Shown: positions 5,696-5,875 of the stretch, in pieces
Layout: the number at the start of each line of letters is the position of its first letter
How positions within the stretch are numbered: position 1 is the stretch's first letter
IMG/VR virus record: IMGVR_UViG_2526164649_000017
From: a virus
Taxonomy: Duplodnaviria; Heunggongvirae; Uroviricota; Caudoviricetes
Reading direction: 5' to 3' (one strand)
Length of the DNA: 10,224 nucleotides
The notes under the pieces: model-generated
Database searches by the model: none
What the model was told of the DNA's origin: nothing
The model's input: the letters and a program-made list of their open reading frames with translations, nothing else
Program-made: the position numbers and the translations under genes

Positions 5696-5875
5696 ATGTA
5701 CCAGATGGAAAAAATCACAACAGGTGTGTCATACACCACGTCAGCGGTGGGAACGGGCTACTGGTTCCTGCAGTTGCTGGACAGGGTTTCCCCGTCTCAG
5801 TGGGCGGCAATAGGCGTGCTGGGGAGTCTGCTGTTTGGGCTGCTGACATATCTGACTGAGGTGTACTGGCAATAG
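5696..5875 (+). pseudogene. S21-type class II holin, 3' end truncated by IS600 insertion
   Basis: GGGAG SD 7 nt before ATG 5696 and a second ATG at 5705 (dual-start MYQM, as in S21 MKSM). [51 protein letters not shown] is close to my recollection of S21; native sequence ends at 5856 and the frame runs into IS600 giving EVYWQ-stop. The ORF-track start 5651 is an upstream in-frame ATG without SD. Confidence 0.75.

Follow-up and report, generated by a model that had tools for sequence, protein, structure and literature searches.

Truncation of a phage 21-type holin gene by IS600 at the Qin-prophage locus of Shigella flexneri

The virus record IMGVR_UViG_2526164649_000017 (Caudoviricetes), a stretch of 10,224 nt that was analyzed in full and is referred to below as the window, carries an open reading frame (ORF) for a class II (phage 21 S-type) holin at 5696–5875 (+ strand; 59 codons and a stop) that runs directly into a copy of the insertion sequence (IS) IS600. 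This arrangement raises the question of what became of the 3' end of the holin gene and of the endolysin and spanin genes, and whether the shortened holin could still act. The best overall explanation, to which we assign a probability of roughly 0.88, is that the ORF is a pseudogene, a stump retaining the first three-quarters of a phage 21-type holin gene at the right-hand end of a lambdoid prophage remnant at the Qin locus, left by an IS600-associated deletion and an inversion.

Identity and breakpoint of the truncated holin

The sequence of the ORF at 5696–5875 places it in the phage 21 S holin family, in truncated form. It matched Pfam PF04971 ('Bacteriophage P21 holin S', Phage_holin_2_1) with 83.2 bits (E=1.2e-23; cut-off, 26 bits), the match being confined to profile positions 1–54 of 64, and its product aligned with phage 21 S without gaps at 40 of 59 identical residues (68%). 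A first-pass annotation of this DNA had proposed an S21-type holin and called for an alignment with S21/essD-type holins; both results confirmed the ORF as a holin of that type. No NCBIfam model matched the truncated holin, and Rfam gave nothing within or adjoining it. The intact comparator was the 71-aa holin of a prophage in E. coli 042 (NC_017626.1; holin WP_000372595.1), which shares 53 of the 54 native residues.

Codons 1–54 (5696–5857) are native, and codons 55–59 (EVYWQ) and the TAG stop (5858–5875) are derived from the right inverted repeat (IRR) of IS600, whose terminal repeat TGAGGTGTACTGGCAATAGCGG encodes these five residues and the stop. Codon 54 (ACT, Thr) occupies 5855–5857, and its final T doubles as the first base of IS600 (TGAGGTGTACTGG...). 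Pairwise DNA alignment with E. coli 042 was continuous to ...TATCTGACT and was followed by complete divergence. When the segment 4900–5900 was compared by megablast with 5426 complete E. coli genomes, hundreds of matches of 99% or more were obtained, every one of which stopped at window position 5857, and the holin-IS600 junction itself was present in none of the 5426. The loss of the C-terminal region at about codon 54, with IS600 starting at 5857, had been noted in the first-pass annotation and was borne out by the E. coli 042 alignment.

As read from the sequence, the first transmembrane domain (TMD1) and the connecting loop are complete, and TMD2 is native to T54 (19 of 23 residues), its last four residues (NLYF) being replaced by the IS-encoded EVYW. 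Over the whole C-terminus, residues 55–71 (NLYFKIREDRRKAARGE, net charge +3) were replaced by EVYWQ (net charge −1), with loss of the Lys anchor and the charged cytoplasmic tail. A Shine-Dalgarno-like GGGAG, identified by direct reading at 5684–5688 (+), lies 7 nt upstream of the first ATG and is unchanged in E. coli 042.

A protein identical to the whole 59-aa product is catalogued as RefSeq WP_000284495.1 / SUI61165.1 ('class II holin family protein / Lysis protein S [Shigella flexneri]'). Two complete chromosomes, CP024470.1 and UGYQ01000001.1, encode it, as does one short-read contig that crosses the junction. The window and CP024470.1 were 99.97% identical, with three 1-nt indels.

IS600 copies and flanking DNA at the Qin locus

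The IS600 copy that abuts the holin with its IRR end (copy A; 1264 bp, 5857–7120, − strand) was delimited by inverted-repeat analysis of its ends and length. A second copy (copy B; 1264 bp, 7730–8993, + strand) is inverted relative to copy A and differs from it by one substitution and two compensating 1-nt indels. The left inverted repeat (IRL) and the IRR could be aligned in both copies as imperfect terminal repeats starting TGAGGT. Both orfA (100 aa) and orfB (272 aa) of copy A are intact. The IS600 orfA/orfB products matched the NCBIfam IS3-family transposase model, and the copies were 98–99% identical to E. coli elements labelled 'IS3-like element IS600 family transposase' by PGAP. In copy B, an extra C at 7899 frameshifts orfA, and the A-run near the IRR is one A shorter (5895–5901 in copy A, 8949–8955 in copy B). 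The same copy B in CP024470.1 has an intact 100-aa orfA, and these 1-nt indels may reflect homopolymer errors in sequencing and not true mutations. An apparent extension of the A/B inverted repeat by 6 nt past the IS600 ends was dismissed as chance, with only 4 of 6 bases matching (GATGTC vs GATGGG).

Beyond copy A, the holin reading does not resume. A simple IS600 insertion into an otherwise continuous gene was considered and rejected, as the far flank is IS2 from nt 103 down to nt 1, reading ...LTSIICSPMTS... and not NLYFKIRED. This inverted IS2 left end (nt 1–103) occupies 7121–7223 (− strand; its reverse complement reads TAGACTGGCCCCC...GGAGAACAGATGATTGATGTC), includes the first four codons of IS2 orfA and matched an intact IS2 copy in UGYQ01000001.1 at 99%. 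It is joined at 7224–7729 (−) to an internal fragment (approximately codons 89–257) of the chromosomal MFS transporter gene ydfJ, which is inverted relative to the rest of ydfJ, is 98.2% identical to K-12 ydfJ (L005 9515–10021, in the coordinates of the K-12 locus) and matched Pfam MFS_1/Sugar_tr and TIGR00883; its junctions were read directly. On the other side of copy B, IS2 from nt 90 on (insC/insD) fills 8994–10224 (+), and its end lies 11 nt past the window end. This portion matched the NCBIfam IS2 TnpA and TnpB models above cut-off and was 99.7% identical to K-12 IS2E. In CP024470.1, the IS2 ends at position 14540 of the extracted locus (L002) and is followed by ydfJ from codon 257 onward. 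Neither the ORF list nor profile searches revealed an endolysin, spanin or other phage gene downstream of the holin in the window, and no endolysin or spanin was found in the 5.6 kb beyond it in the two complete S. flexneri chromosomes. The earlier statement that no endolysin or spanin follows therefore holds for the window and extends 5.6 kb further.

Within a 20-kb context, the genes on the left are IS600, part of ydfV, relB, relE, hokD, rem, DUF968 (ydfU), rusA and Q. From Q, the order continues with tRNAs, an iraM-like gene, DUF1737 and the truncated holin, and then IS600, the IS2 and ydfJ fragments, IS600 and IS2. To the right of this IS2 lie the rest of ydfJ (C-terminal 164 aa), ydfI, ydfZ, ydfH (rspR), ydfG and dcp. 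This is the Qin-prophage locus of E. coli K-12, in the same order and orientation; the integration site of Qin has been reported at the 5' end of ydfJ (PMC6379469). A third IS600 (L002 2224–3487) bounds the remnant on the left and cuts within ydfV. Approximately 6.7 kb of prophage DNA is left, from part of ydfV to the truncated holin, with IS600 at both ends and with the relBE and hokD toxin-antitoxin genes intact. Of the earlier description as a lysis-defective cryptic prophage, the first part stands, the holin being cut and R and Rz absent, and 'cryptic' understates the decay to a stump of this size.

The two ydfJ pieces allowed the rearrangement to be traced. The inner piece (L002 11530–12036) maps to L005 9515–10021 of K-12, and the outer piece (L002 14541 on) starts at L005 9518, proceeds downward and runs into ydfI; therefore, both pieces meet at one IS2 insertion site, with the inner piece inverted. 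A 4–5-bp duplication, ATCA(T/G), was found at this site. Flipping the IS600–IS600 segment restores the order ydfJ (codons 89 to 257), IS2 (nt 1–103), IS600, IS2 (nt 90–1331) and ydfJ (codons 257 to 427), and puts copy A between holin codon 54 and ydfJ codon 89, colinear with K-12. Given this colinearity before the inversion, the losses are accounted for by one IS600-associated deletion. Deletion, and not displacement, is thus the most likely fate of the holin 3' end, of R and Rz and of the entire right arm. With the inversion undone, IS600 lies inside IS2 and is flanked by a 14-bp direct duplication of IS2 nt 90–103 (AGATGATTGATGTC; window 7121–7134 and 8994–9007) and not by the usual 3 bp; this would be an insertion of unusual type or else the outcome of recombination between two IS2::IS600 alleles that lay 11 bp from each other.

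These observations can be arranged in the following scheme. In the ancestral phage, transcription of the holin would have started at a late promoter beyond Q and passed several intrinsic terminators. The product would have been a two-TMD pinholin, possibly with a longer form from Met1, that depolarized the membrane and so released a signal-anchor-release (SAR) endolysin encoded just downstream, with the spanin genes coming next. IS600 now lies at codon 54/55, and an IS600-associated deletion would have taken holin codons 55–71, ydfR, R, Rz, the morphogenetic arm, attR and ydfJ codons 1–88. Recombination between two inverted IS600 copies would have flipped the segment with IS2 nt 1–103 and ydfJ codons 89–257. 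The inversion may have been later or earlier than the deletion; in either order, one deletion and one inversion would leave the right arm gone and the surviving ORF a pseudogene without lysis partners.

The state of the IS600 flanks was examined against a simple IS600 insertion in recT of E. coli 2015C-4944, which has the same termini and a clean 3-bp target duplication (GGC). Such a duplication is missing at copy B (flanks GGG / AGA) and at the upstream copy in the CP024470.1 locus (TAG / AGC). Copy A has the flanks GAC / GAC, which come from unrelated, non-contiguous DNA (holin vs IS2). We judged the latter to be a 1-in-64 coincidence, since it is hard to see how a holin codon could have become joined to a position inside IS2. 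The lack of a credible target duplication at any of the three copies is expected after recombination or deletion. As a separate observation, the DNA outside the IRR end is alike at two independent sites, GCTGACATATCTGAC in the holin (5838–5856) and GCTGACAGGCTGGC in recT (L006 1494–1514, in the E. coli 2015C-4944 locus); this likeness may hint at a target preference, although with two sites it could be due to chance.

The age of the holin-IS600 junction could be judged from other genomes. In UGYQ01000001.1 (L003 10797–12040), copy A is split by a nested IS3-family element, and in CP178302.1 (L007 3700–4425), it is truncated by IS1, with unrelated DNA beyond. The junction is therefore older than these events. 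Matches in E. coli to the IS600-IRL/IS2 junction that seemed to be 100% covered were discarded, as they consisted of two separate pieces approximately 450 bp apart and not of this junction.

Fate of the missing genes and residual function of the stump

An inversion with a distant IS600 might instead have moved the holin 3' end, R, Rz and the right arm elsewhere, perhaps intact. IS-mediated inversions are abundant in Shigella chromosomes, one is present here between copies A and B, and all three IS600 copies at the locus are without genuine target duplications. However, once the A/B inversion is undone, the holin stump and ydfJ from codon 89 onward are colinear and in the K-12 orientation, for which one deletion suffices. 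The missing 3' end was also sought in the GTDB representative genomes through the predicted reciprocal junction, composed of the IS600 IRL end, 3 nt and TAACCTGTATTT, and no match was found in any of them. A control scan of the same genomes for the holin-IS600 junction found CP178302.1, so that at least one genome bearing that junction lacks the reciprocal one. We consider displacement unlikely. A misassembly is far less probable still, to the point of being negligible. It would mean that the holin and IS600 were misjoined at a repeated IS and that the real genome holds an intact cassette. IS600 is indeed multicopy, and the three single-base indels relative to CP024470.1 suggest some sequencing error in the window. 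Nevertheless, two complete chromosomes that were assembled independently share the identical junction, as does CP178302.1, and a short-read Logan contig runs from 200 nt of unique holin DNA straight into IS600. The first-pass annotation had named an intact, contiguous holin-endolysin cassette in the true genome as the finding that would overturn it; both complete S. flexneri chromosomes have the junction in its place.

The remaining alternative is that the IS-tailed holin still functions in the membrane, as a residual pinholin or a toxin, and has been kept because of some use to the host, such as Q-dependent depolarization of the membrane. Systematic truncation of S21-68 has shown that its C-terminus is dispensable down to K56, and that a positive charge is required at K56: Arg is the one replacement that works, and with Glu or a hydrophobic residue most of the function is lost (10.1101/2021.04.20.440580). 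Counted from Met4, the stump yields a product of 56 aa, the length of the functional S21-56 variant. TMD1 and most of TMD2 are native, EVYW is hydrophobically similar to NLYF, the ORF, ribosome-binding site, Q and upstream region are intact, and the same allele is found in several genomes. The S21-56 length and the hydrophobically conservative end of TMD2 make residual pore activity thinkable; if so, the locus would hold an IS-created, endolysin-less 'orphan pinholin' acting as a host-retained toxin during Q-dependent late transcription. On the same numbering, however, residues 52–56 are EVYWQ in place of the native NLYFK, so that the required terminal Lys of S21-56 is a Gln here, N52 is replaced by an extra Glu and the net charge of the tail is −1. 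The genomes that share the allele are nearly identical (99.7–99.97% at the DNA level), and this sharing is therefore not evidence of selection. Moreover, the adjoining IS600 was hit by further IS elements in UGYQ01000001.1 and CP178302.1, which points to ongoing neutral decay. By analogy with the phage 21 protein, the chimeric holin is most likely a non-functional pseudogene, and retention of a working protein is improbable, somewhat more so than displacement. Lysis could in any case not be completed, with no endolysin or spanin at the locus.

Several points weigh against the deletion, inversion and loss of function that we favor. The GAC/GAC flanks of copy A resemble a 3-bp target duplication and, taken as such, would argue for insertion of IS600 into a pre-existing holin/IS2 fusion. 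The right arm may sit elsewhere through a further inversion with a junction other than the one tested, the scan having covered the GTDB representatives. Finally, the loss of function is deduced from mutagenesis of the phage 21 protein, which is 68% identical, and EVYW happens by chance to be a conservative replacement of NLYF.

The dual start was also examined. Met1 and Met4 (the latter at 5705) are both present in frame, and residues 2–3 between them are Tyr-Gln, with no basic residue. Phage 21 S and EssQ begin M-K-S-M, and the intact E. coli 042 relative begins MDQM. S21-71 owes its antiholin character to the additional positive charge (PMC9636201). In the 120 cluster representatives nearest to this holin, MYQM was found in 32, MKSM in 20 and MYRM in 13, and MLRM, MDQM, MNQM and others formed smaller groups; one intact holin with the MYQM start (P0122) has records on almost 1000 contigs. 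MYQM is thus the commonest N-terminus among these representatives and is a feature of the clade, not a defect of this copy. The absence of a basic residue, to which the first-pass annotation drew attention, is real, and it is no peculiarity of this copy. A lineage-specific mutation of MDQM to MYQM, suggested by E. coli 042, was rejected for the same reason, MDQM being the rarer of the two.

The region upstream of the holin retains the elements of a lambdoid late operon. An intrinsic-terminator-like hairpin followed by a UUUUUAUUGUUGU tract was found by a terminator scan at 5630–5668 (+). The hairpin proper (5630–5658; 12-bp stem, 5-nt loop) ends 37 nt upstream of the holin ATG. It folds with a minimum free energy of −17 kcal/mol (z=−5.27; 0 of 200 shuffles as good) and is kept in E. 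coli 042 apart from one extra T. The terminator candidate earlier placed at 5633–5660 is thus real and conserved. At least two further + strand terminator-like hairpins lie between Q and the holin (3378–3397 and 4550–4571), and the region has 8 terminator-like sites vs 2.3 ± 1.3 in shuffles. The Q antiterminator gene (2476–3297, +; Pfam PF03589, E=9.5e-55) is intact, and its 273-aa product has the same length as the E. coli 042 homologue. A candidate late promoter (TTGATT-16 nt-TGgTAAATT, 3303–3330, within the region 3303–3397, +) was recognized by direct reading and was below the scan threshold. The 3378–3397 hairpin and the tRNA genes (3441–3516 and 3618–3694) follow in that order. This layout parallels the curated annotation of phage 21 (Q, pR', QBE, terminator, tRNA-Asn, tRNA-Thr, S). 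By this lambdoid late-operon architecture, it is reasonable to infer that expression of the holin would have needed Q antitermination.

The same region contains further genes. ARAGORN called the tRNA at 3441–3516 a tRNA-Met (CAT), whereas PGAP gives tRNA-Ile at the identical position in E. coli 042. We take the latter to be the ileZ-type tRNA of Stx-like phages, its CAT anticodon presumably being lysidine-modified. The tRNA at 3618–3694 is a tRNA-Arg (TCT). A full-length match to STnc100 (Rfam RF02076; 132 bits vs a gathering score of 47) was found at 4391–4580 (+), within the cargo of the late operon, after the tRNAs and before the iraM-like gene, with the strong terminator hairpin at 4550–4571 as its 3' end. 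The iraM-like gene (4606–4941, −), antisense to the late operon, encodes a homologue of the IraM family of anti-adapters (RpoS stabilizers; NCBIfam NF007393, 162 bits), and a DUF1737 gene (5186–5389) lies downstream of it.

Comparison with known systems

Degradation of a lambdoid prophage and a transporter gene by IS600/IS2 deletion and inversion is a well-described form of Shigella genome decay. IS1, IS2, IS4, IS600 and IS911 have expanded in all Shigella species, with IS-driven gene loss and pseudogenization (PMC7373316). Both the product, as a RefSeq entry, and the mode of decay are thus already known; no published description of this particular holin-IS600 junction was found in the literature on IS600, holins and Shigella prophages. 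What the present analysis adds is that RefSeq WP_000284495.1, 'class II holin family protein', is the product of a truncated, IS-tailed pseudogene, which matters little beyond annotation, and that the Qin-locus prophage of S. flexneri is a stump of about 6.7 kb between IS600 copies, the same events having destroyed ydfJ. The locus is a worked example of IS600/IS2 recombination dismantling a prophage and an adjacent transporter gene, consistent with the published population-level decay of Shigella.

The comparator for phage 21 S was OL657228.1 39866–40081, annotated as S21-71 antiholin / S21-68 pinholin. The holin studied here shares with it PF04971, the M-x-x-M dual start, a weakly hydrophobic TMD1 rich in Gly/Ala/Ser/Thr, the loop D-x-VSPSQ and a 10-residue core of TMD2, and the upstream layouts agree in the order Q, promoter (a candidate here), terminator, tRNAs and S. 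In contrast to phage 21, the last 17 residues (the end of TMD2, the Lys anchor and the charged tail) are gone, the N-terminal extension is Tyr-Gln in place of Lys-Ser and brings no extra positive charge, the SAR endolysin and spanins are absent, and the tRNAs are separated from the holin by about 2 kb of additional cargo (STnc100, iraM-like, DUF1737). That this holin lacks the C-terminal and cassette-context features of its family would follow from their deletion.

The E. coli 042 prophage is 98.4% identical in DNA from DUF968 through holin codon 54. Unlike the present locus, it retains codons 55–71 (NLYFKIREDRRKAARGE), directly followed by YdfR, lysozyme and Rz, and has Asp as residue 2 (MDQM) where Tyr is found here. 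Its lysozyme has an Ala/Gly/Leu-rich N-terminal segment, which appears to be of the SAR-endolysin type, and by analogy the cassette would fit a pinholin/SAR-endolysin system as in phage 21. K-12 Qin agrees with the present locus in site and orientation (dcp-ydfG-ydfH-ydfZ-ydfI-ydfJ, then the prophage) and in the left arm relB-relE-hokD-rem-ydfU (93% identity). Its EssQ belongs to the same holin family (69% identity), and ydfR comes next in the intact relatives. K-12 Qin differs in keeping essQ-ydfR-rrrQ-rzpQ/rzoQ, the cold-shock genes, nohA, stfQ, tfaQ and pinQ before ydfJ, and some of the tail region, whereas here the right arm and ydfJ codons 1–88 are missing and IS600/IS2 stand at the junction. 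For the segment from Q to the holin, K-12 gave no nucleotide match, whereas identity to the E. coli 042 prophage was 98.4%, indicating a different mosaic at the same site.

A holin of S. sonnei (P0013) is identical to this holin through residue 67 and then continues into the unrelated sequence ECQLRPAASSISCNGTAVPC, pointing to a separate truncation event, at another position, in a holin of this type in a second Shigella lineage. The defective stx prophage of S. dysenteriae 1, an IS-degraded lambdoid prophage according to its citation in PMC6379469 (McDonough & Butterton 1999), differs from the Qin remnant in being another prophage at another locus; the remnant has no toxin cargo. The two are alike in being lambdoid and in having become defective through IS insertion and IS-mediated rearrangement or deletion.

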